Source: a virus (Duplodnaviria; Caudoviricetes). Taken from it: DNA of 52,797 nt. Under the pieces are notes generated by a model. It saw only the letters and a list, made by a program, of their open reading frames with translations, had not been told where the DNA came from and ran no database searches. The position numbers and the translations under genes are program-made. Of the stretch, positions 443 to 28,829 are shown piece after piece (position 1 is the stretch's first letter; every line of letters begins with the position of its first letter). The DNA lies in IMG/VR virus record IMGVR_UViG_3300023179_000145, positions 1 through 52,797 of that record. One strand, 5' to 3'.

Positions 443-456
443 TTTTCTATCTTTTA

Positions 457-472
457 TATAAATATATTTATA
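457..472. promoter_or_regulatory. Perfect palindrome TATAAATATATTTATA: two back-to-back T4-type late promoters
   Basis: TATAAATA on + (457-464) points to the HNH ATG at 489. TATAAATA on - (472-465) points to the nrdA-b ATG at 442. Confidence 0.75.
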
Positions 473-488
473 CATCATAAAGTACACA

Positions 489-1580: not shown

Positions 1581-3084
1581 TATCATCATGTTCAGTTAGA
1601 TCCTTTACCTTTTTTGTGGTATCATCTGATAACAAAACACGATGCTGCCCTGGCAATGTAATTTCTTGACCATCGTCTAAATATAACTTAAATTCTCCTT
1701 CATCATCAATAGATTCAAATGGTGAATTTGGAAGAGTAATTTCGGCGCAAAGGTTGGATTGATACACTGGATTTTCTAATGGATCAAACGGTCCTTGAGC
1801 TTGAACATTGTCTGTGTACATCAAGTAGATACGCCCTGTATCAGTACGTTCTTTAAGAATGCCACCCTTGAACACTTCTTCAGCACTCATTGTGAGTTTT
1901 CTCAAGTCAGAGCGGTTTTCGTACTCAACATACAATTCTTCAAACTTCTTGGTGTCTTTATAGAATGCCTCGTAAAGATCAGGAACCTCGTGGGGATCAA
2001 AAAATGTAATATTACCTTGATCTTTGAATCTTCTCCAGAAAAAAGCATTTAGTACGACTCCATAGTCCAAATGCCTCACACGTGTTTCTTCAGTACCTTG
2101 ATTATTTTTAAGGACAATCATATCTGAGAATTGTAGGTGCCAAATTTGAAACCACACTGTACAACTAGCATTTCTGATGCCACCCTGACTTGTGGCTCGT
2201 AAATCAGCGAACCACTTTTTCAAGAATGGTATCATGCCTGTGTGGGAAATTTCTCCGTTTCTGATTGGTGCTCCTAGCGGTCTAATTTTACCAATTTCAA
2301 GACCAATACCTGCACGTTTAGATGCGTATTTACCCATCATCTCGCCAGTAGCGTATATTGAATTTAAGCTGTCACCCGCAGAAATCAAAACGCAGGAAGA
2401 AAATTGCTTAGTAGGAGTACCAAGCCCGGCAAGAACAGGAGTAGCCAATGTAAAGAGTCCATCACTTGCTGCATTGTAATACTCTTTGATGTAGCGCATT
2501 CTCGCTGAGTTCGGTTCTTCTCGGTGAAATATAGTAGCAGCCGCGACCATGTATCTAATTTGTGGAGTTTCATAAATTTCCTTTGTTGCACGATTTTTTA
2601 CTAGATATTTTTCAATGAGTTGTTCAATGGCTGCATAGCTGTAGAGTTCGTCTTTTGAATGATCAATAAACGATTCCATCTTGCCCCAATCTTCTTCTGT
2701 ATACCAGTCTAGTAATTCTGCGGTATATAGACCAGTAGCTATATTACGTTTTACGATTTCGTATAAGGGCGGAACTGCATAAGTGCCGTATACATCTTTT
2801 CTGAGCATGCTTAGTCGCTGTTTTCCTGCCACATATTGATAATTAGTATGTCCTACTTCGGGATTAGATTCAACGTCGATTAGGTCAACAATGGCTCGTA
2901 GTGTAATGCCGTCAATTTCTTTGGTTGTGATGCCATCATAAAAGTGCATCTGTGCCTTGATCTCTACCATGCTTTGACTTACGTCTGCTGTGCCTGAACA
3001 TACTTTGGCAATTTGGGCCTGCCATTTTTCCAGACTCAATTGTTCTTTTCTTCCGTTACGTTTAATAACTGTGATTTGTGTCAT
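1561..3084 (-). CDS. nrdA: Ribonucleotide reductase alpha, N-terminal fragment (NrdA-a) with a degenerate intein-like tail
   Basis: N-terminal ATP cone (VIKRNG), ATPVLAG, FSSCVLI, SQGGIRNAS, QSNLCAEITLP. Ends in a 43-aa non-NrdA tail. Confidence 0.96.
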   Translation of the reverse strand: MTQITVIKRNGRKEQLSLEKWQAQIAKVCSGTADVSQSMVEIKAQMHFYDGITTKEIDGITLRAIVDLIDVESNPEVGHTNYQYVAGKQRLSMLRKDVYGTYAVPPLYEIVKRNIATGLYTAELLDWYTEEDWGKMESFIDHSKDELYSYAAIEQLIEKYLVKNRATKEIYETPQIRYMVAAATIFHREEPNSARMRYIKEYYNAASDGLFTLATPVLAGLGTPTKQFSSCVLISAGDSLNSIYATGEMMGKYASKRAGIGLEIGKIRPLGAPIRNGEISHTGMIPFLKKWFADLRATSQGGIRNASCTVWFQIWHLQFSDMIVLKNNQGTEETRVRHLDYGVVLNAFFWRRFKDQGNITFFDPHEVPDLYEAFYKDTKKFEELYVEYENRSDLRKLTMSAEEVFKGGILKERTDTGRIYLMYTDNVQAQGPFDPLENPVYQSNLCAEITLPNSPFESIDDEGEFKLYLDDGQEITLPGQHRVLLSDDTTKKVKDLTEHDDIKNLLI

Positions 3085-3088
3085 ATAC

Positions 3089-3511
3089 TCAATATAGTTG
3101 TTTTTTTATATCGCTCTGTGCGATGTGATGTTTGTTTTGCTGTAGGTTGATATTTAACCCTATAGACTGATCCCAATTCAATATATATTTTCCATTCTCT
3201 ACCAGGACTAAATTGCCCTGATCTGAATCAACCAACACAGCGTCCTGGAGATCATCACGATCCAGCACAGTAATAGTATACAGGATCCCTAGCCCTCGAG
3301 CAATATCACAATAGATATTATCGCTCAAAAGTTGCCAGGGATCTGGCCAATCTTGTCGATCATCCCAGTGTAAATGATAAGCCCGCCATGGAGTTTTTTG
3401 CCACCAGGAGTTGATCTCGCCTAGTGCATCGGGCTTGGGTAGCATGCGAACACGATCTCTTAGAGAGTTCCACGCTGCCAGGCGTTGTTCAAAGGTTGAA
3501 CACCACATCAA
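3089..3511 (-). CDS. Hypothetical phage protein
   Basis: Tightly packed in the operon; start overlaps the upstream stop. Confidence 0.75.
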   Translation of the reverse strand: MMWCSTFEQRLAAWNSLRDRVRMLPKPDALGEINSWWQKTPWRAYHLHWDDRQDWPDPWQLLSDNIYCDIARGLGILYTITVLDRDDLQDAVLVDSDQGNLVLVENGKYILNWDQSIGLNINLQQNKHHIAQSDIKKQLY

Positions 3512-5094
3512 GCAAGTTTGGTTATTGAATAGTTAATAGTGGCTGCGATGCCAGTGTTGGTGGTAGTAGCTTTCCAACTCACAATACCAGCAGTTTCGCT
3601 AACAGCAAACGCAACACCAGTGGATGCATTCTGCACACCAGAATCTGATCCTTGTATATTTGTACCCGCTGAGTCGGTGCCAGCCACAATAGTGTACACA
3701 CCAGTTCTGGTGTTAACATCTCGCACTATGGTATAGTTGATCTGAACTGCTCTAATTGCTGTGGCATCAAATGTCAAAATGGTTTGGTTGGCAGTATTGT
3801 TGAGTAATGTTCCAGTAGTACCAGTTTGCCTTACATACGTACCTTGTTGTGTTTGATTAGCAGCATCAAATGCTATGTTAATACCGTTGTTGATGTTGAT
3901 TCGAGGATATGTGCCAGCATACGCTGTGGTACGTTGAAACATGTCGCCAACGCTGACATTGTTTTGTCCTACAAAATTAATTACCGCAGTAGCCGGCGAT
4001 GTAGTTCCGTTAAAATGATTGCCCACGTCATAAAACGTGTTGTATCCACTGGCATTCATTCCTGTATTAGCAGCAATCAAAATACCCTCGGCGTAGATGT
4101 TATCAAACACATTGCCCAAGAATCTAAATCCAGTAGGGCCGCCGCTGATTGGAGCCGGGTCTCCTAGCAACACACCTTGATAGTGTGTGTCAAATGTGCT
4201 TTCAGTGACCAATACGCCTTGTACTTGATTGGGAGTCTCAAATGCCCAAGTGGTGCCACCAAATGTACATCCACGGAACGTGATGTTTTTACAGATTAAA
4301 CTCGCAGTAGACGAAAAATGCACACATGCCACATTGTCAAGTGCGTCTGTTAGATCAAGTTGGGTGCGAGATCCTAAAAAACTCACGTCAGTAAAGGTAC
4401 ATTGTTCAGCATCTTCAACTAAAAATATGTCAGCTAGGCCTGCGGCTTCAAACCCCATATTGGAGATTGAAATATCAACAGGAGGGGTAGCACCATTGTT
4501 ACCAATGTTTACTCCTGTTTGCTGCAAGCTATCACTGTACACAGCCACATACTGGCTGGCACTGGCTGCGTCTAATACAATAACACTAGAGTTGATCCCT
4601 TCGCCATACAACAATGCATAAGGTGGAATTTTGATTGAACTGGTAACCAAATAGCGGCCAGCTGGAAAGAATAATGATCTACGTATTTGTGGATTTGGTT
4701 CTCTACAATACAGTTGAAACAATGCACGATTGATAGCATCGGTGTCATCAGTTACACCATCTCCTGTTGCACCAAAATTCAATACGCTGGCAAATTGATC
4801 TAACCAACTTTGTACACTTATACTAACTGGGCTACCAGATGATGCTCCGGTCTGCGCTATGTATCCAGCAGCAGCACCTTTGTAAGTGTATGCACCCCCT
4901 ACCAGCAATATATCACTGTATTCGGTGAGTATTTCTGTATTGCCTATTACAGGGGCGCCATCTTGCAAGGTTCCATTGCCGATGTAGAGTCGACGTGTGT
5001 CGATGGCCCAGCCCAACTCCGCGCCAGCCAATTGTGGCAGATTTTCTGCTAGACCTTTACGGTTTGTTATTCGTGATACTTGAACTATTGCCAT
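3508..5094 (-). CDS. Virion/tail protein with a pectate-lyase-like beta-helix
   Basis: N-terminal LAGAELGWAIDTRRLYIGNG tail-fibre motif; SVLNFGATGDGVTDDTDAINRA Pectate_lyase_3-type motif; upstream TAAATA. Confidence 0.75.
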   Translation of the reverse strand: MAIVQVSRITNRKGLAENLPQLAGAELGWAIDTRRLYIGNGTLQDGAPVIGNTEILTEYSDILLVGGAYTYKGAAAGYIAQTGASSGSPVSISVQSWLDQFASVLNFGATGDGVTDDTDAINRALFQLYCREPNPQIRRSLFFPAGRYLVTSSIKIPPYALLYGEGINSSVIVLDAASASQYVAVYSDSLQQTGVNIGNNGATPPVDISISNMGFEAAGLADIFLVEDAEQCTFTDVSFLGSRTQLDLTDALDNVACVHFSSTASLICKNITFRGCTFGGTTWAFETPNQVQGVLVTESTFDTHYQGVLLGDPAPISGGPTGFRFLGNVFDNIYAEGILIAANTGMNASGYNTFYDVGNHFNGTTSPATAVINFVGQNNVSVGDMFQRTTAYAGTYPRININNGINIAFDAANQTQQGTYVRQTGTTGTLLNNTANQTILTFDATAIRAVQINYTIVRDVNTRTGVYTIVAGTDSAGTNIQGSDSGVQNASTGVAFAVSETAGIVSWKATTTNTGIAATINYSITKLA

Positions 5095-5140
5095 GTGAGT
5101 CCTAATTCTGTGCTGTATTTAGCCAGAATCCATCAGGCAA

Positions 5141-5857
5141 CTAAATGTGCTGGGTGTAGTATTCTTCTACCTTGCGCCACCATAAGTTGCAATAACGATC
5201 GTACTCAGCACCTTCTAATACAAATTCTTGATATTGAGGCTTGGTAATAAGATTGTGATTCACATCAAGTTCAGGTTTCACACACATGAGAATCACTCCC
5301 TTGCGTATTTTTGTACCATGCAATTCATTATGTGCCTCTGCATAAGCACATAACTGAACAAAGTAATCATCAATCCATTCACGCTTTTTGGGCTTGTTGG
5401 ATTGTTTGTAATCCAGGATGGATTCTTCGTTCAAGTGCATGCCTGCACCATCAGTAGTACCTGCATAGATCTTGGGAAAGTATAGTGGAACTTCAATACC
5501 CCAGAATTCAGAGACATTTTTCAACCCATCACGGATTACAGTTCGGGCCATTTCATGACTTGACCAACTAAACGGGTTAGTACCACGTTCTTTGATTGCG
5601 CCTGTTTTCACATAGTCTTCGAGATATGTGTGCATACGTGTGCCACGGTTGGCAGCTTCTGTGGTGATTTGTTGTGCTTTTTCTGCTCCAACTGCACGCC
5701 GCCAATTATGCAGTGCTGCTTTGCTAGCTTCACTTTTGGTCTTGTCAAGAATGGTAGTCACACTTGGTAACTTGTTTCCATCAGGTGTGGCATAGAAACG
5801 TTTGCCGTCTATTGTGACTCGGGGAATTGGTTGATAATCAAATTTTGGATTGTACAA
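5141..5857 (-). CDS. PD-(D/E)XK exonuclease (MGME1/phage exonuclease-like)
   Basis: PSVTTIL, RGTRMH, YAGTTD, LDYKQS, QLCAYA motifs. Start uncertain; TTG near 5857 chosen to avoid overlap with iscA. Confidence 0.85.
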   Translation of the reverse strand: MYNPKFDYQPIPRVTIDGKRFYATPDGNKLPSVTTILDKTKSEASKAALHNWRRAVGAEKAQQITTEAANRGTRMHTYLEDYVKTGAIKERGTNPFSWSSHEMARTVIRDGLKNVSEFWGIEVPLYFPKIYAGTTDGAGMHLNEESILDYKQSNKPKKREWIDDYFVQLCAYAEAHNELHGTKIRKGVILMCVKPELDVNHNLITKPQYQEFVLEGAEYDRYCNLWWRKVEEYYTQHI

Positions 5858-6179: not shown

Positions 6180-6919
6180 ATTGTTTTTATAAATTCTTGC
6201 AATTCACATTCCCAAACAACAGTAATATTATACCCCAAGGATTCTAAATATTTCTGTCTTTCTGAATCTAACTGCCATTTTTCTTTGGCAGTTTTCTTTA
6301 ACTGTGGATGGTAAAAGTCTTCAGCAAACAATTTTGGATTGCAGTGCCAATAATCTCCATATACTTCAACTATGTGTTTAGTGTCTTCGTTAACGTAATC
6401 AGGTTTATATTTTCCTATTTTAACATTTGTTTTATAATCAACTAACAATAGTTCTAATGTTTTTTCTTTTTTACTACGCGGAGAAGTTTTTGCAAGATGT
6501 CCAACATTTTCTGTGCCGTATCTTTCAAGATTAGTTTTTTTAACCTTCTCAAAATAATCAGTTGTATGTTTCTTTCCTTTAAAATTACCAGGTAGCCCTT
6601 TATTCCATGCAGTTTGCAATCCTTGTTTATTTTTGTTCCACGGCGTTCTTCCTTTGCAGGATTCAGATAAATTCTTAACCCATGTATCTCTATTTTGTTC
6701 TCTAGTAGCATACCGATCAGCATTCCATGTCCTGGATTCTGTCATATCTGGATTCCGTTGCCAGTGCAATTTAGCAGAACAAGATTTCGAACAACATTCT
6801 ATACCAGAGCCTTTTACTAATGTTCCGCAGATAGGACACGGTTTATGTCCTTTTTGATAACCATTTTTGTTGTCTTTTCTTAGTGTGATGCCGCAACCGC
6901 ATTTACATAGATTTTTCAT
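6176..6919 (-). CDS. Putative homing endonuclease (Zn-ribbon, PWNK repeats, Vsr/DUF559-like PD-(D/E)XK domain) between iscU and iscA
   Basis: CKCGCG, CPIC, PWNK/AWNKG, KPD...EVYGDYWH, VVWECE. Own TAAATA 5 nt upstream of ATG 6919. Confidence 0.85.
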   Translation of the reverse strand: MKNLCKCGCGITLRKDNKNGYQKGHKPCPICGTLVKGSGIECCSKSCSAKLHWQRNPDMTESRTWNADRYATREQNRDTWVKNLSESCKGRTPWNKNKQGLQTAWNKGLPGNFKGKKHTTDYFEKVKKTNLERYGTENVGHLAKTSPRSKKEKTLELLLVDYKTNVKIGKYKPDYVNEDTKHIVEVYGDYWHCNPKLFAEDFYHPQLKKTAKEKWQLDSERQKYLESLGYNITVVWECELQEFIKTI

Positions 6920-6945
6920 AACTTTATTTATCAAAGTTATTTGCT

Positions 6946-7329
6946 CTATGTTTGGTTATGTTTTTCTTTGTAGTCTTTGACCGCTGCGGCAATGGCATCA
7001 GAAGCAAGGATGCTACAATGGATTTTGACTGGGGGCAGCGCGAGTTCTTGAGCAATCTCTGAATTTTTAAGAGCTGCGGCCTGGACCAGGGTTTTGCCTT
7101 TAACCCACTCGGTAACAAGACTACTCGAGGCAATAGCACTACCGCATCCGTAGGTTTTGAATCTAGCATCTGTGATAACTCCATTTTCTACTTTGATCTG
7201 AAGTTTCATTACATCACCGCAGGCCGGACTTCCGGTGAGTCCAGTCCCTACTCCTTCTTCGTCTTTAGAAAATGAGCCAACATTTCTAGGATTGTCGTAA
7301 TGGTCGAGTAACTTTTCACTATAAGCCAT
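6946..7329 (-). CDS. iscU: Fe-S cluster scaffold protein
   Basis: NPRNVG, PACGD, FKTYGCGSAIASSS, LPPVKIHCS. Confidence 0.96.
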   Translation of the reverse strand: MAYSEKLLDHYDNPRNVGSFSKDEEGVGTGLTGSPACGDVMKLQIKVENGVITDARFKTYGCGSAIASSSLVTEWVKGKTLVQAAALKNSEIAQELALPPVKIHCSILASDAIAAAVKDYKEKHNQT

Positions 7330-7920
7330 ATTTGTCTCCAGTTATAGATTCTACTATCTCAATGGGCTGATAACTATCCCATTTCTTTCGATTTTCTTCG
7401 CCTGTGATAAATTGTATATTCTTTTTACTTCCAAGTAAAGAGGGAGCAATACCTAATTCAAATCCTTGTCTATGTGGAATGATATGATCAATTTGCCAAC
7501 TGTCTTTATACTTACCTATTGTTGGCACCCATTCACCGTTTGCTCTCATTTCTTTGATTGTTCTATATGTAAAATATCGCACTTGTTGCCGATATAATTT
7601 TAGAGGTTCTGTAATTGGATTTTTTGGCCTGAGATTGTTAAGCCGTCCATTCCAGTTAGGATTGTTTTCACCTAACATTCGCATTCTTGCTACTTCGTTG
7701 GTGCCACCTTTGTTCCACCCCAACCTTTTTCCAACCCGATTCTATTTTGTTTTGCTTTTTGTTCTTCGGTAAGTTTGATTCCTTTGTTCCACGGATCAAA
7801 CTCACCTCTGTTTAATGGATTCTTACATTTCTGTGAACAAAAATCCAAGAAGCGTGGTTTAGTTTCAAATTCATTACCACAATACTGACAACACTTGGTA
7901 ATCCCATACTTGTTTTTCAT
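7319..7920 (-). pseudogene. HNH homing endonuclease interrupted by a single frameshift near 7715-7725
   Basis: ORF 7690-7920 (CQYC...FCSQKC, PWNKG) continues in another frame as GWNKG...GENNPNW...QIDHIIP...NIQFITGEENRKK. One G appears missing in TGGGGT. Could be a sequencing error. Confidence 0.75.
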
Positions 7921-13112: not shown

Positions 13113-13664
13113 TTAGGTTGTTTTTATCTTTCCTAACAACTGCTTGAGTTTGGTACTTTGCACATCTGCAGAAATTTTTGGAGCAAACGGATCATGCCCA
13201 TCCTTGGGCTTTGCTCGTTCCCACTGTCCAGGTGTTACCACTGGTTCTGCCGGAGTAACCAAGGCTTTTGCCTTGATAGAATCCATCAAGCTGGGTTTAC
13301 GGAATGAGTTTTCACTGTCTTCACCACCGGCATCTGTGATACGCATGGTATCAATATCATATTCTAAATCAATCTTTTGTCCTACACCTGTTGAACTACG
13401 CGATTTCATACATTGAATTTGATACTTTCCGCGCTCTTTCATTTGCCTGCTGGTAAAGATACCAAACACATTGTCTGCTGTGTTGATCTTCGAGATACCA
13501 CCCGAAATATGACTGTGATCAAACTCTACTTCTTCGACGGCGCTGTTATGCGTTAAAATATCATTGGCATAAAATAAACGATTGCCGTTTACATTTATAT
13601 CAATTGTATCTTCTTCACCAATATATTTGATTGATATGATTTCATCTTCAACGTAATTATTCAT
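13113..13664 (-). CDS. Split-intein C-fragment (40 aa, 13545-13664) fused to the gp41/DnaB helicase C-terminal part
   Basis: ...TIDINVNGNRLFYANDILTHN|SAVEEVEFDHSHISGGISKINTAD...MKSR. Confidence 0.95.
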   Translation of the reverse strand: MNNYVEDEIISIKYIGEEDTIDINVNGNRLFYANDILTHNSAVEEVEFDHSHISGGISKINTADNVFGIFTSRQMKERGKYQIQCMKSRSSTGVGQKIDLEYDIDTMRITDAGGEDSENSFRKPSLMDSIKAKALVTPAEPVVTPGQWERAKPKDGHDPFAPKISADVQSTKLKQLLGKIKTT

Positions 13665-15147
13665 CCGATCCTCTCAATATAAAATGTTTGTGTCCACAAT
13701 CATATATGCGTAATGCTCCCATATCTCGCATAATTTCTGATTCAGATTTATCTGGGTCATTTCCCAAACTGATTAATTTTTTCTTAGTCCAGCTTAATCT
13801 ATGATACATAACTCCATTCAAAAAATACCAATAACCTGGCTTAGTAATATGTGATTGTGTAAAATTGTTATTAGTATACACATCACCTGTTCCATATCGC
13901 AAGTCCGCATATGTAGTAATATCCAAATTTGGATGTTCTTGTTGTATTGCTCTAATGAATTTACCTAATGCACCTGGAACATGATACTCGTCAAATGCCA
14001 ATCTGATTATTTCTATATTGGAATTTTTCTTATTGAACCGACTACCCTTCATACAGGTGAGCACTGCTAGTAACGAGTCATTGTGGTATAAACCATAACA
14101 TATAGATGCTCTACTATGTCCATGGATATGATTCTTTTCTAAAAAACTTTTGGCCAATCTATGGTGAATCTTCTTGACCTGACATTTTCTAGCATGAATC
14201 CGTACATCGGTTATACCCAATCGATGTTTTATCATGCGACAAATTAACTCACGTTTTTCTGCCCATTCACAATCTGTGACCATTAATAATTTAATTCCTT
14301 TATCGGCACATTGTTGATATTTTTGTTGATGGTAATTTGGTTCAAGTCTATCCTCACTATGCCAATAAACACCATTTACTTCAATTGCAAAATTCTCTTT
14401 TGGAAAATATAAATCAAGTTCTTTGGGGGATATTATTTTTCTACTATTCTCAATAATTTGACCAGAATAGAACTTACGTATCTCTGATAGTATGTCCTTT
14501 TCTATAGAGCTTTGTCCACCAAAATTCCCAGTGGGGTAACAAGTCTGACATCTGGGAATTTTTCCAAATATATTTGATGCAAAGACTGTCTGGCAACTTA
14601 CGCAGGTCCAGGCCAACTCTTTGTCTCTCACATGGGTATATTCAGTAAATTCAAAATTAGGAGTTGCAAATTCAGATATTGTCGCCAGTAATTGATTGAA
14701 AAATGTCAATTGCTTGTTTCTTCCTCGCTGGGTCTTTAATCTATCAATCTGTCCGGGATTGATTACTCCGTATCTGTCTGAGCATGTTTGTCGAACCCGT
14801 TCTTTATATTCTACAGTAGATGAAAAATGATCAACCCCGTACCGTTGTTTATTGGTATTTTTTTTCTTTTCGGCAACAGTTTTACTATTAGCTGTACATT
14901 TCCTACTACAGAATTTAGCATAGCCTCGGCCAAAATCTAAAAACTTAGTAGAATTTTGACAGTAGCCGCAAACTGAGGGTGTATCATTGACCCAGCGCCA
15001 TGCCTTTTCGGACAAACTGCCACCACTCAATTCATTTATTTTTGCATACAGAAGTGGCTGCCGAGACTTCAATATTATTGACGCTACTCTGGGTTGGTTG
15101 TCCCATAAATTGAGTATATAATTTTTCTCCTGCAGATAATCCATCAT
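13657..15147 (-). CDS. Hef-like homing endonuclease between the split-intein halves of gp41, with an extra C-terminal GNAT/Mom-like domain
   Basis: RYGV repeats; KELDLYFPKENFAIEVNGVYWH nuclease motif; ARKC...NHIHG...TYADLRYGTGDVY. Confidence 0.85.
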   Translation of the reverse strand: MMDYLQEKNYILNLWDNQPRVASIILKSRQPLLYAKINELSGGSLSEKAWRWVNDTPSVCGYCQNSTKFLDFGRGYAKFCSRKCTANSKTVAEKKKNTNKQRYGVDHFSSTVEYKERVRQTCSDRYGVINPGQIDRLKTQRGRNKQLTFFNQLLATISEFATPNFEFTEYTHVRDKELAWTCVSCQTVFASNIFGKIPRCQTCYPTGNFGGQSSIEKDILSEIRKFYSGQIIENSRKIISPKELDLYFPKENFAIEVNGVYWHSEDRLEPNYHQQKYQQCADKGIKLLMVTDCEWAEKRELICRMIKHRLGITDVRIHARKCQVKKIHHRLAKSFLEKNHIHGHSRASICYGLYHNDSLLAVLTCMKGSRFNKKNSNIEIIRLAFDEYHVPGALGKFIRAIQQEHPNLDITTYADLRYGTGDVYTNNNFTQSHITKPGYWYFLNGVMYHRLSWTKKKLISLGNDPDKSESEIMRDMGALRIYDCGHKHFILRGSDE

Positions 15148-16375
15148 TTATTGTCCTTAATCCTTGTGAAGTGGGAAATTTATGATTTGCACTACACATA
15201 ATCGTTTTACCAGTACGAGTGGTTATCTTGTAAACTGACTGCCTGGTGATAGGCAAAATTTCAGTCACTGTGACCGATCCCGAATCAGATTGCAATTGGT
15301 CACCTACCTGCACCTGACTGATGGGTTTGGCTTGCCCATCAACCACAACCACAGTATCTAATGTCAAACACCTGTTCAATTGACTTGCAGTCACCATCAA
15401 GATGCCCAACTCTTTGGCCAAATTTCTTAATTCCTCACTAACATATTTATCTTTCACAAACAAGTCATTAGGACTTACCTTTGCACTCACAGGCATCAAC
15501 AAATCCAAGTAGTCAATCATCACAAAGTCCACACGCTTGCCTGTTTGAATTTGATACTCTTTCAAATAGGCTCGTATGTCATTGATGTTGCTTTGTGCCG
15601 GTAACCCTTTCACTTGATAGTTGCCGGATTTTTTTGCTACCAGTTTGACTTTGAGTTCTGTTGTGTCCATGTCCTTGCGAATATCCTTGGTACTCATGTT
15701 TGTGAGCATGGCATCAGTTCGCAAACTTGTGAGTTCTTCGCTCAACTCCAGTGTGATGTATACTCCGCTCAACCCTGTTTGTACCCAGTTCAATGCTATG
15801 TTCATCATTACCAACGATTTGCCAGATCCTGACCCGCCTGCAAAAATGTTGAGTTCGCCTCGACTGAATCCGCCATACAACAGTCGATCCATTTGTGCCC
15901 ATCCTGTACTGACTTGTCCGCCAGAATTGAAATATTTTTCAAGCCGTGCTTTGGGATCAGCAAAATAATCAGTGCCCATGTCTTTGGTCAATGATATCTG
16001 CACAGCGTCTTTGATTAGTTTTTCAACTGGATCGTAATCACCCTTTTCCAACAAGTCTGCTGCTTTGAGAATTGCACGTTCTAGTTCTTGTCTGCGTGTG
16101 AAAGATTCAAACTCTGTCATGAACCATTCAAAGTGGCCTTCGTTCAGTTCTGGCACTGACTGTAGTTTAATACCAGTGGTGGCTGCTATCTGAGACCGAT
16201 CTGGCAAGGTCTTGTATTTGTCTCCGTGCTCTTTAAGAAACTCAGCTGCTGGTCTCAAACTTCGATCAAAGTTCTCTGGATTATAAATGTTCTGCACACG
16301 CACGTACCCCTGTGCATCCTCCAACATCATTTCCAAGAATAACTTTTGTACTTCAATTCCGTATTCTTTTAACAA
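15032..16375 (-). CDS. Replicative helicase gp41/DnaB N-terminal part plus split-intein N-fragment (15032-15370)
   Basis: GGSGSGKS, ITLE, IDYLD, TASQLNR|CLTLDT...CSANHKFPT. Confidence 0.96.
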   Translation of the reverse strand: MLKEYGIEVQKLFLEMMLEDAQGYVRVQNIYNPENFDRSLRPAAEFLKEHGDKYKTLPDRSQIAATTGIKLQSVPELNEGHFEWFMTEFESFTRRQELERAILKAADLLEKGDYDPVEKLIKDAVQISLTKDMGTDYFADPKARLEKYFNSGGQVSTGWAQMDRLLYGGFSRGELNIFAGGSGSGKSLVMMNIALNWVQTGLSGVYITLELSEELTSLRTDAMLTNMSTKDIRKDMDTTELKVKLVAKKSGNYQVKGLPAQSNINDIRAYLKEYQIQTGKRVDFVMIDYLDLLMPVSAKVSPNDLFVKDKYVSEELRNLAKELGILMVTASQLNRCLTLDTVVVVDGQAKPISQVQVGDQLQSDSGSVTVTEILPITRQSVYKITTRTGKTIMCSANHKFPTSQGLRTINDGLSAGEKLYTQFMGQPTQSSVNNIEVSAATSVCKNK

Positions 16376-22815: not shown

Positions 22816-23316
22816 TTACCAAGCCTTGTTGTAGTCCACAATTTCACAGTTACGACTAACGTCTTTGACAAAATACACACAGTCTGGTTGTGGTGCATCA
22901 TTGATAGGTACGCACAACATCTGCCCATTTTTTAGCTTGGGTGCATACCATGCTACTTCTTGATACACATCCACAATTTCAATAGGAGGAAAACTTGGGC
23001 GGAAACTGCTTAAAGGATTGAATTGAAACAGTTTAAATCCACGATCATTGATACTGGTCAGTGGTAACATTTCTAAGTCACCCACATCAGGTTCTCCTAT
23101 CAACACTTGCCAGTCCATGGGCATTTTGATTCTTGCATCACCTATCTGCAATACCAGTGCAGGTGAATTAAAACTTTCAAGAAAAATCAAAGGTATGTAA
23201 TGATAGTCAGGATTGGCTGGATCTGAATTATCTAATATGGCAAATCTCATGTCATCTACTTCTTCAGGTAAATGTGTGAGATCATAGGGTTTGTTGTCTA
23301 ATGTCAATATACGCAT
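22816..23316 (-). CDS. Hypothetical protein downstream of uvsW
   Basis: Own sigma70 promoter, TTGCAA-17-TACAAT at 23323-23351. Confidence 0.75.
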   Translation of the reverse strand: MRILTLDNKPYDLTHLPEEVDDMRFAILDNSDPANPDYHYIPLIFLESFNSPALVLQIGDARIKMPMDWQVLIGEPDVGDLEMLPLTSINDRGFKLFQFNPLSSFRPSFPPIEIVDVYQEVAWYAPKLKNGQMLCVPINDAPQPDCVYFVKDVSRNCEIVDYNKAW

Positions 23317-23353: not shown

Positions 23354-24196
23354 TCATTGCCATTGTAATTTTTCCTGAGTATAAGGATACTCAGCATCAT
23401 TATAGTAGGCCTTGCGTTTGGCCAAATGCCGCTTGCTGAATTTACAAGTGCTGGTGATATCCCAAATCTGCACATGATCTTTGTCCTCAGCTTTTCTAAT
23501 ACCACGCCCGATTGATTGAATTACTCGGGTGAAACTTTTGCCTGACTCAATCATGACCAAGTTAAAGATACGTGGTATGTTGATACCAACTGCTGCCACA
23601 CCATATGTGGCCACAATGATTTTGCCAGTGGCAGTGGCCACTTCGTCGTATTCTTCTTGGCGTTTAGCGCCTTTGGTTGCACCCGATACAAATACTGCTT
23701 GATCTCCCAATCTTGCAACTAGTTCATGCCCGGGTGCTACTCGATCTACCAGCACAAGAGTATTACCAGTTTCATTCACTTGTAAAACCAACTGGGCTAT
23801 GGCATCTAATCTGCCGGGTTCTTCCAGTAGATATTTTAGTTCTTCTTGATAAGTTTTGTGCTCTCGAATGTCTACCAACTGCACCACATTCACGTGACAC
23901 TGTGCCAATACACCACGATCTTGCAATTCACTTGCTGCTAGTTTTGAAATAACTGGTCCCAGACTTACCAACAATGCTTGGCTTTCAAATTCTTCTTTGG
24001 GAATAGTTCCGGTCAATCCCCATCTTAGGGGAATCTGACACATGGCACCCGTCAGCAGGGTCTTGAGTGCGTCGGCCTTGGCCATGTGGCAATTTGCCAC
24101 AACAGCTCCTTCAACAATATAATTATGATCATTTTCTATGTGTAAGTTGTACACTTCTGTTGGTTTGATAATTTCGGTTCGGTCAATTAGTTTCAT
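23354..24196 (-). CDS. uvsW: UvsW piece 3: split-intein C-fragment 2 (35 aa, 24092-24196) plus helicase C-terminal 245 aa
   Basis: VYNLHIENDHNYIVEGAVVAN|CHMAKA...GLTGT...GINIP...QSIGRGIR. Confidence 0.94.
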   Translation of the reverse strand: MKLIDRTEIIKPTEVYNLHIENDHNYIVEGAVVANCHMAKADALKTLLTGAMCQIPLRWGLTGTIPKEEFESQALLVSLGPVISKLAASELQDRGVLAQCHVNVVQLVDIREHKTYQEELKYLLEEPGRLDAIAQLVLQVNETGNTLVLVDRVAPGHELVARLGDQAVFVSGATKGAKRQEEYDEVATATGKIIVATYGVAAVGINIPRIFNLVMIESGKSFTRVIQSIGRGIRKAEDKDHVQIWDITSTCKFSKRHLAKRKAYYNDAEYPYTQEKLQWQ

Positions 24197-25091
24197 ATAA
24201 TGCCTTTATTTTTTTTGCTGTTTTATCGTCAAATCGATTATAATCAATATCCATAATCTGAGCTTGTAACCATTCTTTGTCAACTAATAATACAGTGTAT
24301 CTGTTATTTTTTGCCCATTCATTGAGAGCATGCATTTTTGCAGTAAACTTTTCACCCAAACATAATTCTCTCGGTTTAACTTCTATAACTTGTTTGTTAT
24401 GATGATCCACAAAGTCCACAATATACACATGATTCTCAGAATTCAGTTCATATTTTATTCTCAGTAATTCATATTCTGCAAATTCATTGATATATTGATA
24501 CAATGCCTCCCAACTCGATCTGTAGGCCGTTCCGTCTAATGTTGCATCCCAGTGTGTGTTTCTATTATTACTGTTGGGCGTAAATGTTCCGGCTAATATC
24601 TTGGATTTCATAATTTGCGATCGCATTTCTTTATCAGCATCAGACATTTTAACACCGTACATTCCATTTCCAGGGCCGGAATTTTTTAGACTGATTTTAT
24701 TTTTAACTATTTGAGTCAGATGAGCGCGAGTTCCTATGTTTTGACCCTTTGTTCCGATATTCCACGGTGTACCAGTATTGAGATTTTTTTTAATAGCATT
24801 GCCATGTTTTTTCTGTACAGCCCGGCCGCCAATGGCCGATAGCATTGCTCTAATTTCTTGTTCTGTTACATTACCACATAACAATTTGTCAATATTAGTA
24901 ACCCATAACTCTGTTTTGCTGTTTGTTATTCTCTTGACAAATCTATGTTTTTCGTTGTTGGTCAATGTGATTCCAGTTGATAGTGTTATACTATTACCAG
25001 AATAATTTGTAATACGAATCAATTGCCCGTTCTTTTTCAATATTTCATTTAATATATCTATCATTTGCTGAACAGTCTTTTTCATAAACAC
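24183..25091 (-). CDS. Putative homing endonuclease (TnsA-N-like PD-(D/E)XK) inside the second uvsW split intein
   Basis: YRSSWE...YIVDF...IEVKP; PWN and GNGMYG NUMOD-like motifs. Confidence 0.85.
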   Translation of the reverse strand: MFMKKTVQQMIDILNEILKKNGQLIRITNYSGNSITLSTGITLTNNEKHRFVKRITNSKTELWVTNIDKLLCGNVTEQEIRAMLSAIGGRAVQKKHGNAIKKNLNTGTPWNIGTKGQNIGTRAHLTQIVKNKISLKNSGPGNGMYGVKMSDADKEMRSQIMKSKILAGTFTPNSNNRNTHWDATLDGTAYRSSWEALYQYINEFAEYELLRIKYELNSENHVYIVDFVDHHNKQVIEVKPRELCLGEKFTAKMHALNEWAKNNRYTVLLVDKEWLQAQIMDIDYNRFDDKTAKKIKALYETN

Positions 25092-25112
25092 CTTTGCTTT
25101 AGTTATATGTAT

Positions 25113-26084
25113 TTATGTTTTATTTATGATTTCGTGTGCATTGGTCAATTCATCTGCTCTCACCCATCCAGTATCAGTTAGAAACTTATGATTTCCGGTG
25201 ACTAGTATTTTATTCCCATTGTCAAACTCTAGCTCATACATTTTTTCACTGGAGGATTTAGCTAAATTCACATGCTGTTTAACCACAATATCAATCTTAA
25301 ATTCTTTTGTAGTTTCAGAATAGTTGATAACTTTGTCACCTGATTTAATATCTCTAATAGGCACATATCCAGTTGGAGTTAACACCCTGCTATCTGCCGA
25401 AAAACATTCATCCACAATCACACAAACAACATCTGTCAGGAATTCCTGTATGGTACAATCACCCACACCATTCTTGGTATTCTTCATGAGATTGTTCAGG
25501 CTTTGCCACGTGCATATGGTATGACTACGACCATATTCTTTTCTATCTCCGAAGTACACGCCTACATCCAACTCCATGTTGATATAATCTTTTTCTGTTT
25601 GTGTGACCAAGCTCTTGTTGGGCACAATCACAATACTGCGACCATACTTACTAACTGCGTCACTGAGTGCTGCTGTCATGATGGTGTTGTGGTGAATCAC
25701 CCCATCCATATCATAATAAAGGTGTGGCGAATCTATTCCTATATCATAAAATGTGGTATCAGGTATTTCGTAAATGGCATCTATAGTAACGTCTCCGTTG
25801 ATGGTTTCAATTTTTTCACCCACACATAAATCAAAAGCAAAAACGTCCCTGCCATTCTGTCGCAGAATATGCTTAGTGGCACACTTAATTTCTATTCCCG
25901 TAGACGTAACCAATTTAATTCCAGAAAGATTTTCTTTCTTGATTATATGGTTAATCCGAGACGATCCTGTAGGGGTATCTATATAACAACCCAAATCTGC
26001 TATATCGATCTCTTGATTGTGCTGTAGTTTTATATTTTTATACTCCTCTACTGCCGTTGCCAATTGTCCAATACTAATCTTCAT
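25113..26084 (-). CDS. uvsW: UvsW piece 2: IntC1 (133 aa, 25686-26084), 93-aa extein (25407-25685), IntN2 (97 aa, 25113-25406)
   Basis: ...FYDIGIDSPHLYYDMDGVIHHN|TIMTAAL...VIVPNKSLVTQ...VIVDE|CFSADS...VTGNHKFLT. Confidence 0.94.
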   Translation of the reverse strand: MKISIGQLATAVEEYKNIKLQHNQEIDIADLGCYIDTPTGSSRINHIIKKENLSGIKLVTSTGIEIKCATKHILRQNGRDVFAFDLCVGEKIETINGDVTIDAIYEIPDTTFYDIGIDSPHLYYDMDGVIHHNTIMTAALSDAVSKYGRSIVIVPNKSLVTQTEKDYINMELDVGVYFGDRKEYGRSHTICTWQSLNNLMKNTKNGVGDCTIQEFLTDVVCVIVDECFSADSRVLTPTGYVPIRDIKSGDKVINYSETTKEFKIDIVVKQHVNLAKSSSEKMYELEFDNGNKILVTGNHKFLTDTGWVRADELTNAHEIINKT

Positions 26085-27093
26085 TTAAAAACTTTCTACA
26101 TTTGTTAATGATTTCATCAGGGTTTTCTCTGTAATCCTTTTCTGAGATACGTAATATCGTAAATCCGGCTGCTTCCAAATCCCTCATTTTTCTTTGATCC
26201 TGTTCCCATATTTCAGCAACCGGTCTATTTCGAAGTATATCGGTTGCTTTATACAAAGCAGGATTGGCATGCCAATAATCGCCATCAAATTCAATTATTT
26301 TTCGAGTTTCAGAATCGTAATAATCAATGCGATATGTTTTTGATTTACCACGCACAGTAGTTTCATCGTCTCCGTATCTACCTTTACCGCCAACAGCATT
26401 GAATAATTCAGTTGAGACTTTGCTAATACCCAAAGTTAGCTTCGACATCTTGTTGAGCCATTTTTCTATCCTGGTGTTATACTTCAACGTACCGTCAACT
26501 TCTCCGTACTTCTCTATATACCAACTTAGCCCATTTGTAACTTGCATCTCTGCTACTTTCTGACACGCATTGGCATCTGAATATCCTTTTTTAATCCAAT
26601 ATTCTTTAGTTCTAACAGAAAATCCACGAGCACCTTTTTTTGAAGCCGGGGACTTTGCTGATCGAGTTTGTTGAATTGCTGATACCTTTTTGTTTGCCTC
26701 TTCTTTGGTAAAGCCAGCTGCTAACCAAAATTGCCGATTATTTGTAAATTTTCTTGTTTTGTGCTTTGAAAATGTTGTTAAAATATGATTGGCTTCATCT
26801 TGAGAAAATAATGTAGTTAACTTCTGCACCGTAGCATAGTTCTTACTGTCGGCAGAACATCCACAAGTGTTCACAATAAACTCGTTTTTACGAAACCCGA
26901 CGGGCAATGTCAAATGACATTTTAAGCAGTGTCTAGACTGAACTTCAAACTTGTTAAGTCCACTGTATGGCATATAATATACCTTATCTCCGTTGAATTG
27001 TATCAAATCCCATATGTCTAAATCAAGATTTTTTCTTGAGATCATCGAAGACCACATTTTTCTTTGGTATTTTTTAATAAATTCTTGTAACAT
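26074..27093 (-). CDS. Putative homing endonuclease (Vsr/DUF559-like) inside the first uvsW split intein
   Basis: IDY...IIEFDGDYWHANP...LRISE; YWIKKGY and YIEKYGEVDG repeats. Confidence 0.85.
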   Translation of the reverse strand: MLQEFIKKYQRKMWSSMISRKNLDLDIWDLIQFNGDKVYYMPYSGLNKFEVQSRHCLKCHLTLPVGFRKNEFIVNTCGCSADSKNYATVQKLTTLFSQDEANHILTTFSKHKTRKFTNNRQFWLAAGFTKEEANKKVSAIQQTRSAKSPASKKGARGFSVRTKEYWIKKGYSDANACQKVAEMQVTNGLSWYIEKYGEVDGTLKYNTRIEKWLNKMSKLTLGISKVSTELFNAVGGKGRYGDDETTVRGKSKTYRIDYYDSETRKIIEFDGDYWHANPALYKATDILRNRPVAEIWEQDQRKMRDLEAAGFTILRISEKDYRENPDEIINKCRKFLNED

Positions 27094-27110
27094 AGTTTTT
27101 GCTCCTGTAG

Positions 27111-27641
27111 CTATTTTCTATATTTATTTATTAAAAATCCTCCAAAACTTGAGTTTTCGGATACTGCGATATTAAGCAGGGTGTCAAATGTAACACACTT
27201 ACCCGCTCCAGTGGCCACTTCTTGTAGACACTGTGGGTTGGCTAGAAAATTGTTGATGATTTCTACTTGATAATCACGCAGCTCAATAGGCTTGCCTGCC
27301 AGTGGGTGTTTAACAGGCCAGATCTTGTGGGCATAAGTCTGTTCGTGTACTTGATCAAACTCAAATGTGGTTGTGTATGCGCGTTGATCATCCAGCTCAA
27401 CATCATAATTATGTTTGTCTAGTATGGGCAAGATCTCTGGCAATAGATTCACATAGGTGCTGCCGCTCAGTTGAAAGTATGCTACCTTGCCGTCCCAACG
27501 GCCAAGTCTCACTGCTGGCAGATAACGTGCGTAAGGTACATCGTATTTGAATTTTTTTACCAGATCTCGTCGAGTGTCAAGATCTAGCCCTTCAATTTTG
27601 ATATTGACTTCGTCACTTAGTTTAATTGTGCATTTTTTCAT
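27111..27641 (-). CDS. uvsW: UvsW piece 1: 148-aa N-extein plus a 28-aa split-intein N-fragment (27111-27197)
   Basis: GRWDGK, LRDYQ, ATGAGK|CVTFDTLLNI. Start MKKC placed from the promoter position. Confidence 0.93.
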   Translation of the reverse strand: MKKCTIKLSDEVNIKIEGLDLDTRRDLVKKFKYDVPYARYLPAVRLGRWDGKVAYFQLSGSTYVNLLPEILPILDKHNYDVELDDQRAYTTTFEFDQVHEQTYAHKIWPVKHPLAGKPIELRDYQVEIINNFLANPQCLQEVATGAGKCVTFDTLLNIAVSENSSFGGFLINKYRK

Positions 27642-27648
27642 ACAGTAT

Positions 27649-27677
27649 ATAGTAACACACTTGAATGCCATAGTCAA
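27649..27677 (-). promoter_or_regulatory. Sigma70-type promoter for uvsW
   Basis: TTGACT-17nt-TACTAT. Confidence 0.65.
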
Positions 27678-27707
27678 AAAAACAGGCACCAAAGTGCCTG
27701 TATAAAA
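27676..27707 (-). terminator. Rho-independent terminator
   Basis: Stem acaggcac-caaa-gtgcctgt with a T-run on the minus strand. Confidence 0.75.
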
Positions 27708-28030: not shown

Positions 28031-28114
28031 TTACATCACAATCATCAGGACTATAAACGCTGCCAACCATGGGTAGCCGCAACACAATGCTGCAATAGCA
28101 GCTACCCAGGCCAT
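28031..28114 (-). CDS. Small membrane peptide (27 aa)
   Basis: MAWVAAIAALCCGYPWLAAFIVLMIVM; starts 1 nt after the stranded ATPase stop codon. Confidence 0.5.
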   Translation of the reverse strand: MAWVAAIAALCCGYPWLAAFIVLMIVM

Positions 28115-28115
28115 G

Positions 28116-28141
28116 TTAGGCTGCTTTCATGCAAGTGGTTT
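28116..28141 (-). pseudogene. Stranded original 3' end of the AAA ATPase gene
   Basis: AA ACC ACT TGC ATG AAA GCA GCC TAA (TTCMKAA*) parallels the current end ACG ACA TGT ATG CGT GCC AGG GGC TAA (TTCMRARG*). Confidence 0.85.
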
Positions 28142-28163
28142 GATGTCTGTCATAAATAATTTT

Positions 28164-28829
28164 ATGAAATTCCTGGACAACAAATATACAAAAACTTATT
28201 TTAACATTATTGCTTCTGCTAACACAAGAGTTATCGAAGGGTATGTTGAAAAACATCATATCATTCCAAAAAGTTTTGGGGGGACGAACCATGCTAATAA
28301 TCTTGTCAAACTTACTGCAAGGGAACATTTTATTTGTCATTTGTTACTAGTCAGAATGACCCAAGGGAGAAATCAAACAAAGATGCTACGGGCAATTCAA
28401 GCATTTGGTAAGTTGAAAAAAACAAACAGATCTCTCACAGCCCGACAGTACCAATTAGCACGAACTCTTACTGCTGATCTTCCTGCATGGAACAAAGGAA
28501 AAACTCTTGCCGACTATACTCCTGAACAAAAAGAGGCACTCCGTAAATCTGGTATTACCAAGAGAGGCAGAACACAAACTGCCGAAGCTAACGCTAAAAG
28601 ATCTGCAACGCAATCCGGAAGACCTGCTCATAACAAAGGTAAACCTATGCCTTTCAAAGGAAGAGTCAGTCCCACCAAAGGTATCACACACCCCAAGAAA
28701 CCATGTCCTCATTGCAGTAAAGAAGTTGCCGCAAATATTATGGCCAAGTATCATGGGGATAGGTGTCAATTTAGCCCCTGGCACGCATACATGTCGTCTC
28801 TGCCAGGCGTTTCCAGTTGCCTTCGCTGA
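28164..28829 (+). CDS. HNH homing endonuclease with NUMOD3-like motifs, antisense at the 3' end of the ATPase
   Basis: EKHHIIPKSFGG...NLVKLTAREHFICHLLL, AWNKG, CPHC. TAAATA 5 nt upstream of ATG 28164. Confidence 0.92.
   Translation: MKFLDNKYTKTYFNIIASANTRVIEGYVEKHHIIPKSFGGTNHANNLVKLTAREHFICHLLLVRMTQGRNQTKMLRAIQAFGKLKKTNRSLTARQYQLARTLTADLPAWNKGKTLADYTPEQKEALRKSGITKRGRTQTAEANAKRSATQSGRPAHNKGKPMPFKGRVSPTKGITHPKKPCPHCSKEVAANIMAKYHGDRCQFSPWHAYMSSLPGVSSCLR

Follow-up and report, generated by a model that had tools for sequence, protein, structure and literature searches.

A UvsW-like helicase gene of an uncultured phage laid out in three pieces with two different split inteins

Introduction

How is a helicase made when its gene is interrupted inside both motifs of its own ATP site? 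This question is raised by a uvsW-like locus carried by IMGVR_UViG_3300023179_000145, a 52.8-kb viral contig of IMG/VR that was analyzed over its whole length (52,797 nt, hereafter the window). CheckV estimates the window to be 15% complete, which makes it a probable jumbo phage fragment, and the public run that matches it best is labeled as a lake water metagenome. On the minus strand, from 27641 to 23354, five open reading frames (ORFs) stand in a row: a first helicase piece, a free-standing endonuclease gene (A), a second piece, another endonuclease gene (B) and a third piece. The original prediction, drawn from the letters alone, held that two different split inteins join these three pieces into one UvsW helicase. 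The anatomy of the locus, its conservation, its recurrence in relatives, its mosaic evolution and a predicted complex of the three chains are reported here. With a probability of about 0.8, the three-piece helicase would be rebuilt by two trans-splicing reactions of unrelated split inteins.

Results

Structure of the split helicase gene

The segments of the locus are listed below (aa, amino acids; IntN and IntC, N- and C-terminal fragments of a split intein; extein, helicase part).

27111..27641, minus strand: piece 1, 176 aa from the ATG at 27641 (full ORF 27111-27692; stop codon 27111-27113)
27198-27641, minus strand: N-extein, 148 aa, its C-terminal end being the Walker A sequence ATGAGK
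27114-27197, minus strand: IntN1, 28 aa, with Cys1
26074..27093, minus strand: endonuclease A, 339 aa, free-standing
25113..26084, minus strand: piece 2, the central cassette, 323 aa
25686-26084, minus strand: IntC1, 133 aa, ending in HHN, then T
25407-25685, minus strand: middle extein, 93 aa, from the T of GKT to VIVDE
25116-25406, minus strand: IntN2, 97 aa, with Cys1 and a TGNH block B
24183..25091, minus strand: endonuclease B, 302 aa from a GTG or 300 aa from the ATG at 25085
23354..24196, minus strand: piece 3, 280 aa
24092-24196, minus strand: IntC2, 35 aa, ending in VVAN, then CH
23357-24091, minus strand: C-extein, 245 aa, starting with the CH of DECH, followed by RecA-like domain 2

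Once cut by coordinate, the three exteins added up to 486 aa (148+93+245), and every segment length of the original prediction, as well as this sum, proved exact. Sinorhizobium phage Phosso has an intact helicase gene, along which the exteins abut with 0 gap and 0 overlap (nt 1775-2227, 2228-2512 and 2516-3241, the C-extein being aligned from residue 2). The ATG chosen for piece 1 corresponds to M1, which is invariant in 24/24 aligned homologues; GxGK is invariant in the 24 piece-1 homologues, and 8/24 carry an IntN1 of 25-42 aa. Pfam searches gave Intein_splicing (E 3.5e-11), PT-HINT and ResIII for piece 2, Helicase_C for piece 3, and weak matches of piece 1 to UvsW_N (E 0.0022, below the cut-off) and ResIII. 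Piece 3 matched T4 UvsW (PDB 2oca) with an E-value of 2e-16, its CH being aligned with the native ECH of the T4 protein, and piece 1 matched T4 UvsW weakly over residues 20-144. The exteins are colinear with phage helicases, some records of which bear the label ‘RNA-DNA + DNA-DNA helicase’. By its domain content, i.e., an N-terminal domain, two RecA-like domains, Walker A and DExH, the predicted helicase product is UvsW-like and falls in superfamily 2 (SF2). The closest cultured relatives of the exteins are jumbo phage helicases from Phosso, Atu_ph07, Vibrio 2.275.O, Salicola SCTP-2 and Rak2-like phages. At the nucleotide level, the 5-kb region had no match in the phage collection. Taken together, the ORFs, the Pfam matches, the colinearity with Phosso and the 2oca alignment bear out the predicted layout of three pieces and two different split inteins, with GAGKT and DECH restored on joining.

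Two other readings were rejected during this mapping. Extensions of tblastn alignments in Rak2-like phages into IntN2 and IntC2 were spurious, both alignments overlapping on the same DNA, and a group I intron could be ruled out as intein blocks flank both inserts in frame.

Recurrence of the layout and intermediate states

The central piece was searched for at the protein level, 8000 candidates being scored and the best 120 sorted by their parts. The order IntC1, middle extein and IntN2 was found in 54 of the best 120 matches, including the window's own protein. Another 44 carried the N-extein, the middle extein and IntN2 without intein 1, 8 carried IntC1, the middle extein and the C-extein without intein 2, and 10 combined a contiguous intein 1 with IntN2, the last 4 being fragments. 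No frame was disrupted in the 54 central-piece clusters.

A scan of IMG/VR brought up 200 related stretches; 80 loci were retained, and nine parts were mapped onto all of them. The N-extein lies flush against the middle extein, without intein 1 and with intein 2 carried, in 64/80 loci, and an insert of ~1.5 kb made of IntN1, endonuclease A and IntC1 is present in eight (L003-L008, L011, L038). IntC1 is kept in L009, whose 5′ end is cut, as is that of L074. A 513-nt contiguous mini-intein 1 is found in L054 and L055, both without intein 2, and a site-1 insert of ~1.1 kb in L050, L051, L058 and L077. L050 holds, at 3489-5639, a different intein, in frame at the GK/T site of the P-loop, with LAGLIDADG motifs and lying within a 716-aa ORF; this LAGLIDADG intein is accompanied by intein 2 in split form and by what is left of endonuclease B (118 aa). 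Regarding intein 2 itself, junction translation showed it to be split in L003, L006, L007 and L009 by a stop and a new ATG with no endonuclease left, the position of endonuclease B showed it to be split in L004, L005 and L011, and it is contiguous in L008, L025 and L078. Hence, a three-piece gene is present in at least 7 of the 80 loci, L038 being cut too early to judge, and all intermediate states are present: without intein 1, with a contiguous intein 1, without intein 2 and with a contiguous intein 2.

The assembly itself was also considered. One contig of 9.9 kb covers the region from end to end; it comes from the probable source sample and is not independent evidence. In an independent study, identical short contigs bridge the junctions between endonuclease A and piece 2 and between endonuclease B and piece 3. 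The identical central protein was also found on two contigs. The metagenome search for the same architecture, suggested along with the original prediction, was thus successful both among the protein matches (54 of the best 120) and among the IMG/VR loci (at least 7 of 80). Far from being unique to this phage, the layout is a common one in metagenomes.

Conservation at the splice sites

Conservation was followed in 51 central pieces, i.e., the window's and 50 of the 53 others (P0009, P0028 and P0043 were omitted for length), which are 48-74% identical to that of the window. H72 (block B), D114, H131, H132, N133, T134 (the +1 residue of intein 1), D225, E226, C227 (Cys1 of intein 2), N298 and H299 are invariant, and T296 is conserved in at least 90% of them. 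In the same way, N35, C36 and H37 are invariant in 29/29 homologues of piece 3. Ten alleles free of intein 2 were inspected, and read DEVH (5), DEAH (2), DETH (1) or DECH (2), whereas the +1 Cys is present in 29/29 alleles carrying intein 2. The +1 Cys is therefore constant only in alleles whose intein needs it.

The ratio of nonsynonymous to synonymous substitution rates (dN/dS), calculated against L003, L004 and L010, was 0.03-0.06 for the exteins, 0.06-0.09 for IntN2 and 0.13-0.17 for endonuclease B. These values argue strongly for a helicase gene that is alive, with purifying selection on all three exteins. Together with the invariant catalytic residues and the +1 Cys, the extein ratios indicate that splicing is under selection.

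Intein 1, a VidaL-like intein with an atypical split

The best PDB sequence match of IntC1 was the VidaL intein (6vgv, E 9.7e-7, residues 13-133 against 21-142). C1 is present in 8/8 IntN1 sequences, and intein 1 displays the features of class 1 inteins, namely Cys1, the block B His, an HHN end and a +1 Thr. Natural atypical split inteins are described with an IntN of 15-37 aa, and VidaL (PDB 6vgv/6vgw), AceL TerL, GOS TerL and PolB16 combine a very short IntN with a long IntC, as intein 1 does (PMC13014065). The 28 aa of IntN1 in the window lie inside this published range, and the 25-42 aa measured across the 8 loci lie mostly inside it. Intein 1 is accordingly described here as a putative atypically split relative of the VidaL intein.

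The structural model of intein 1 was obtained from the contiguous intein of L054, which AlphaFold 2 (AF2) predicted with a mean predicted local distance difference test score (pLDDT) of 94.4 and a predicted TM-score (pTM) of 0.88. Foldseek returned 65 matches at E<=0.001, and the top listed ones were inteins or intein-like domains, among them Pho RadA, PhoCDC21-1, VidaL (target-normalized TM-score 0.83), NpuDnaB/E and gp41-1. Intein 1 is thereby predicted to have the HINT fold, as modeled on this contiguous relative rather than on the window's own halves. The model shows a strand (8-13), a helix (18-31), a loop (32-39) and a strand (40-43); its lowest-confidence 10-residue block is 31-40 (mean pLDDT 59), and the split of the window maps to this loop. 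The helix 18-31 of IntN1 may correspond either to canonical helix alpha-1 (site S2) or to an insertion that follows strand beta-2 (site S1). Compared with VidaL, which probably comes from a T4-like helicase, the structure-based identity is only ~17%, and IntN1 has an extra helix (model residues 18-31), absent in some relatives, after which the split occurs.

An alignment of contiguous and split forms placed the break of the window in a stretch of variable length. This stretch is absent in P0038, P0064 and P0082, and in other contiguous relatives the tail of IntN1 runs straight into the start of IntC1. In P0006, P0027 and L054, the contiguous IntN1 tail directly joins a sequence resembling the N-terminus of the split IntC1, P0006 having internal Met residues. 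The alignments suggest that intein 1 may pass from its split to its contiguous form, and back, as the endonuclease gene is precisely lost or gained.

Intein 2 and its homologue in Salmonella phage S16

IntN2 had the NpuDnaB intein as its best PDB match (E 2.5e-6), and intein 2 combines Cys1, TxxH, a terminal Asn and a +1 Cys. It is predicted to be a canonical split intein of 97+35 aa. A homologue occurs in an isolated T4-like phage, Salmonella phage S16 (NC_020416; locus L002, 3662-6388), whose uvsW is in two pieces (gp114/gp114.1/gp115). There, gp114 ends with NDE/C followed by an IntN, gp114.1 is a homologue of endonuclease B, and gp115 starts with an IntC ending in AHN/CH. S16 shares the DE/CH insertion site of the window, with identities of 63% for IntN2, 49% for IntC2 and 38% for endonuclease B, but differs by having one split only, an intact P-loop and a penultimate His that is kept (AHN/C). 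The record labels these proteins ‘DNA helicase’, ‘hypothetical protein’ and ‘DNA helicase; UvsW’, and no intein is mentioned in it. A two-piece uvsW cut at DE/CH, with a split intein and an ORF homologous to endonuclease B in between, was also found in the S16 relatives STP4-a, SEA1, NP4, UTK0003 and CF-SP2. The uvsW of S16 is therefore predicted to carry an unannotated split intein homologous to intein 2, and S16 could serve as a culturable test bed.

Proposed splicing and pairing of the fragments

According to the proposed mechanism, the uvsW of an uncultured freshwater jumbo phage would have received two unrelated mobile cassettes, one at each of two catalytic motifs. Each cassette would be an intein coding sequence interrupted by a free-standing homing-endonuclease gene. 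As a consequence, the helicase would be made as three polypeptides. IntN1, at the end of piece 1, would dock onto IntC1 at the N-terminus of piece 2 and splice GAGK to T, and IntN2, at the C-terminus of piece 2, would dock onto IntC2 of piece 3 and splice VIVDE to CH. These two protein trans-splicing reactions would yield a 486-aa helicase with Walker A and DECH intact. The endonucleases presumably cut intein-free alleles, spreading each cassette independently, and the three-piece state would be the double-occupied allele. The splicing chemistry, the orthogonality of the pairs, the endonuclease activities and their target sites are what we infer from the locus and its relatives.

Both inteins occur as contiguous mini-inteins in relatives, from which it is clear that an IntN and its IntC make up one HINT domain. 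Besides, no fragment of intein 1 was significantly similar to a fragment of intein 2, the shuffle z-score being at most 2.6 for every cross pair, and the two inteins are cut at different positions of the fold: IntN1 with IntC2 (63 aa) would lack most of HINT, and IntN2 with IntC1 would duplicate most of it. Mis-pairing, by which the middle piece would be skipped or cyclized, is thus unlikely given these different cut points and unrelated sequences. The argument made in the original prediction, that the pairs must be orthogonal, is reasonable and gains strength from the cut points and the sequence comparison of the fragments.

The pairing was then viewed through a three-chain structure prediction. 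With the central piece as partner, ipSAE reached 0.67 (0.69, 0.67 and 0.66 in the runs) versus 0.44 for the best control, the calibration mark being reached by 58 of 80 solved complexes and 2 of 110 mismatched pairs. At least 67% of the contacts were common to the runs, with a partner pLDDT of at least 68. The confident interface comprised residues 150-174 (IntN1) and 91-142 (N-extein) of chain 1, IntC1 (1-44 and 133) and IntN2 (227-322) of chain 2, and residues 1-33 (IntC2) and 43-79 (C-extein) of chain 3. The pairs of least error joined an extein strand to an extein strand, e.g., 3:55-61 with 2:219-224. As we read these residue lists, each IntN would touch its own IntC, and the predicted complex supports binding of the pieces.

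Mobility of the two cassettes

The two sites have distinct histories among close relatives. Against L010, the synonymous divergence (dS) of the cassette formed by IntN2, endonuclease B and IntC2 was only ~0.09-0.10 (window 24092-25406, L010 4720-6034), versus 1.37 for the N-extein, 0.87 for the middle extein and 0.47 for the first 80 codons of the C-extein; at synonymous sites the cassette thus differs roughly ten times less than the exteins beside it. This low value fits a recent transfer of the cassette with a co-conversion tract.

At site 1, P0024, with 99% identity across the part that aligns (59% of piece 2, i.e., exteins and IntN2), has an uninterrupted GAGKT without intein 1, P0002 is 99-100% identical over the extein and IntN2 and only 38% over IntC1, and L003 has exteins 93-95% identical with only 46% for IntN1, 37% for endonuclease A and 39% for IntC1. 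These patterns point to a site 1 that was repeatedly invaded or replaced. Furthermore, contigs join 25634 to 27199 with 52 diverged letters between, for a net loss of 1512 nt, which is exactly IntN1 through IntC1. This joint occurs in the probable source sample (depth 4.85 versus 23.2) and in a second study, and a near-identical one, from 25646 to 27199 with 40 other letters between, in a third. Such contigs are read as coming from related intein-1-free phages that share the habitat, and not necessarily from this strain. Two independent intein/endonuclease cassettes would thus home into both ATP-site motifs of one gene, and very different intein-1 alleles (38% identity) would be exchanged on nearly identical host genes.

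The two endonucleases and the packing of the genes

In line with the original prediction, each split holds a different free-standing endonuclease gene, A being of the DUF559 type and B related to PHROG 15427. The C-terminal part of endonuclease A (residues 253-336) matched the Pfam family DUF559 (Vsr-like) with 23.2 bits for a cut-off of 20.6, and MTES_1575 REase (Pfam) was also matched with an E-value of 3.4e-6; the protein belongs to PHROG 22677. It is a predicted Vsr-like/DUF559 homing endonuclease, with homologues at the equivalent place in 8/80 IMG/VR loci. Endonuclease B matched PHROG 22417 (E 3e-41) and PHROG 15427 (‘endonuclease’, E 7e-22), and the N-terminal family of TnsA-like proteins in Pfam below the cut-off. 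No relative of either endonuclease was found in a PDB sequence search. The AF2 model of endonuclease B (pLDDT 83) gave weak Foldseek matches to TnsA (the best, E 0.09, probability 0.94) and I-Bth0305I, none at E<=0.001, and D224, E235 and K237 are invariant in 25 homologues. Its C-terminal domain is probably a PD-(D/E)xK nuclease, and its N-terminal modules are probably DNA-binding.

The five genes are tightly packed. The gap from the stop of piece 1 to the start of endonuclease A is 17 nt, with an AGGAG Shine-Dalgarno sequence before endonuclease A, and the gap before endonuclease B is 21-27 nt depending on the start codon chosen, the ATG at 25085 being preceded by the Shine-Dalgarno sequence AAAGG. 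The ATG of piece 2 lies inside the last 11 nt of the endonuclease A gene and that of piece 3 inside the last 14 nt of the endonuclease B gene. Just upstream of piece 1, a hairpin resembling a terminator (27701-27682) precedes a site resembling a promoter (27677-27649, minus strand), and a minus-strand scan inside the five-gene block found no terminator-like site. The number of promoter-like sites (26) is not above the shuffled expectation (21.7 +/- 4.4). The hairpin and promoter hint, along with the lack of an internal terminator, weakly suggest that the five genes may form one transcription unit.

Directly downstream of piece 3, a 166-aa ORF (22816-23316, minus strand) belongs to PHROG 11279, of unknown function (E 9e-47), and had no Pfam match. 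L050 carries a homologue of this ORF at the equivalent position (6812-7342).

Discussion

Weighing the alternatives

Several observations weigh against a helicase rebuilt by two trans-splicing reactions. In intein 2, the penultimate His is replaced by A (VVAN/C), with S in most relatives and A, T or E in some, and an Asn (VYNLH) occupies the block F position where Asp is usual. In intein 1, the block B Thr is replaced by Ala, A69 being invariant in 51 sequences. The activity of the inteins could be slow or rely on compensating residues. Inteins without the penultimate His, the block F Asp or the block B Thr can splice. Besides, the dN/dS of the intein-1 alleles is uninformative, these alleles being 38-63% identical with saturated synonymous sites; the intein-less joints, detected at 90% likeness, rest on sides of only 28-29 nt; and the complex was predicted from our own alignments with three chains, unlike the calibration set, so that its score may reflect memory of solved inteins and helicases.

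The unusual residues of intein 2 are also what speaks for a non-covalent assembly of unspliced pieces, in which one intein pair or both would act as catalysis-dead dimerization modules; the precedent is the split NrdA of Aeromonas phage Aeh1, which is intein-less (Dassa et al., 2009, PMC2677866; PMC3045599). Such an assembly may already exist in this genome, the N-part tail of the window's split nrdA lacking Cys1 and keeping a faint intein signal. However, the 51 and 29 homologues show no change at Cys1, the block B His, the terminal Asn or the +1 nucleophile, a docking module would not need a +1 Cys that is constant with intein 2 and V, A, T or C without it, and in such an assembly ~160 and ~130 foreign residues would go on interrupting Walker A and DExH at the ATP site. 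Non-covalent assembly is therefore regarded as unlikely. It could also be that only the intein 1 junction, whose terminal residues are canonical (HHN/T) when those of intein 2 are not, splices, the other staying non-covalent or inefficient and the main product being a two-chain enzyme. Yet intein 2 is the more widespread and the better conserved of the two, as illustrated by the 64/80 loci that carry it without intein 1, the IntN2 dN/dS of 0.06-0.09 and its invariant +1 Cys, and its S16 homologue resides in a viable, isolated phage, which makes a single working junction quite improbable.

The density of homing endonucleases in the region, the window holding four further endonuclease-like ORFs and another two split genes, could evoke a uvsW that is decaying or dispensable, broken by selfish endonucleases and with its pieces heading for loss. 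This is very improbable in view of the low extein dN/dS, the absence of disrupted frames in the 54 central-piece clusters and the invariant helicase motifs. As for a chimeric assembly, which had been named with the original prediction as one of the findings that would overturn it, the window is indeed a metagenome-derived contig fragment of low estimated completeness, but independent contigs of IMG/VR (L003-L007, L011), drawn from other samples, show the same order of parts, the identical central protein occurs on two contigs and the identical contigs of the independent study bridge two gene junctions; an artifact can be considered as ruled out for practical purposes. Reconstitution by two trans-splicing reactions is thus preferred, being well supported as anatomy and plausible as chemistry.

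A more speculative, and in our opinion doubtful, idea is that the double-split state has been co-opted as a post-translational timing gate, i.e., a three-input late-switch AND gate for UvsW. The T4 helicase UvsW serves to turn off origin-dependent replication. The start of the IntC ORFs inside the 3′ ends of the endonuclease genes (11-14 nt) could couple pieces 2 and 3 to endonuclease translation. According to the introduction of Dassa et al. (2009, PMC2677866), endonuclease translation is limited to late infection in related systems. If true, this gate would be the first natural system needing two orthogonal trans-splicing reactions for one enzyme.

Other split genes and nucleases in the window

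The window is unusually rich in selfish nucleases. A second fractured gene, for a gp41/DnaB-like replicative helicase, lies at 13113-16375 (minus strand) and corresponds to the ‘gp41 pair’ mentioned with the original prediction. Its N part is a 447-aa ORF with DnaB_C and a Hint-like tail starting at LNR/C (IntN of ~112 aa), followed by a 496-aa free-standing homing endonuclease (PHROG 3339) and then by a 183-aa ORF with an IntC of ~40 aa ending in THN/S. At 2-3084, nrdA, encoding the large subunit of ribonucleotide reductase (RNR), is split at position 223 of the Pfam profile Ribonuc_red_lgC. Its N part (1561-3084, minus strand) has a tail of ~43 aa without Cys1 and with a faint intein signal (E 0.006), and its C part (2-442, minus strand) has a 14-aa leader; an HNH homing-endonuclease ORF (489-1580, plus strand) stands on the opposite strand. 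Judging from these tails, the nrdA of the window is possibly an Aeh1-type split, in which degenerate intein remnants would hold the halves together rather than splice. The HNH-type homing-endonuclease ORFs at 28113-28829 and 489-1580 (both plus strand) belong to PHROG 655 and run opposite to the surrounding genes.

Comparison with known systems

Taken separately, each half of the locus is a known kind of element, intein 1 being VidaL-like and intein 2 the same as that of S16. Their order is that of the fractured genes (gp41-1, NrdJ-1, IMPDH-1, NrdA-2 and others) described by Dassa et al. (2009, PMC2677866), in which a DNA-metabolism enzyme is split on one strand into an N-part with its IntN, a short gap, a free-standing endonuclease (GIY-YIG or Vsr-like), and an IntC with the C-part. 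This order, in frame and on one strand, occurs twice at the locus of the window. The fractured genes come, like the window, from phage-like metagenomic DNA, and endonuclease A is also of the Vsr-like/DUF559 type. UvsW is not among the enzyme types named in the corresponding passage of that article, and the gaps given there are 27-51 nt, versus 17 nt and 21-27 nt here (PMC2677866). One split of the window is atypical (28-aa IntN) and endonuclease B is of another, poorly characterized type. Above all, a fractured gene yields an enzyme in two parts as described there (PMC2677866), whereas the window has two cassettes in one gene, three pieces and a central IntC-extein-IntN protein. The three-piece layout can be viewed as a fractured gene doubled within one gene. 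Full-text searches of the literature found no natural gene split three ways by two split inteins (the supplements of PMC2677866 being outside their scope) and no intein in uvsW. This is in line with the original prediction, according to which such a natural three-piece trans-splicing layout was not known to have been characterized: it seems undescribed.

Both the gene and the double insertion nevertheless have partial precedents. In T4, uvsW is a target of SegE, as stated in PMC2988022. The DnaB helicase of Mycobacterium smegmatis carries two inteins at catalytic motifs, as here; in the account given in PMC6195587 they are contiguous and splice in cis, whereas both inteins of the window are split, each with its own endonuclease gene.

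The nearest counterparts of the central cassette are engineered ones. Split inteins are central tools of protein ligation; to link three fragments, two pairs free of cross-reaction are required. In engineered three-fragment ligation, as presented for an orthogonal intein library (PMC7090010) and for triple-vector dystrophin (PMC11271493), the central fragment lies between the IntC of one pair and the IntN of the other and orthogonality is needed, which is the same logic as in the window. The locus would be an apparent natural version of it, making one helicase from three polypeptides with an ultra-short-IntN, VidaL-like pair and a canonical pair. As these pairs co-exist in one cell and in one protein, they would have been selected against cross-reaction, cyclization and skipping, and the relatives offer a panel of at least 53 further natural variants of the central cassette together with all evolutionary intermediates. 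Engineered constructs are designed, whereas the case of the window is natural and would have evolved within one gene, with at least 53 further sequence variants.

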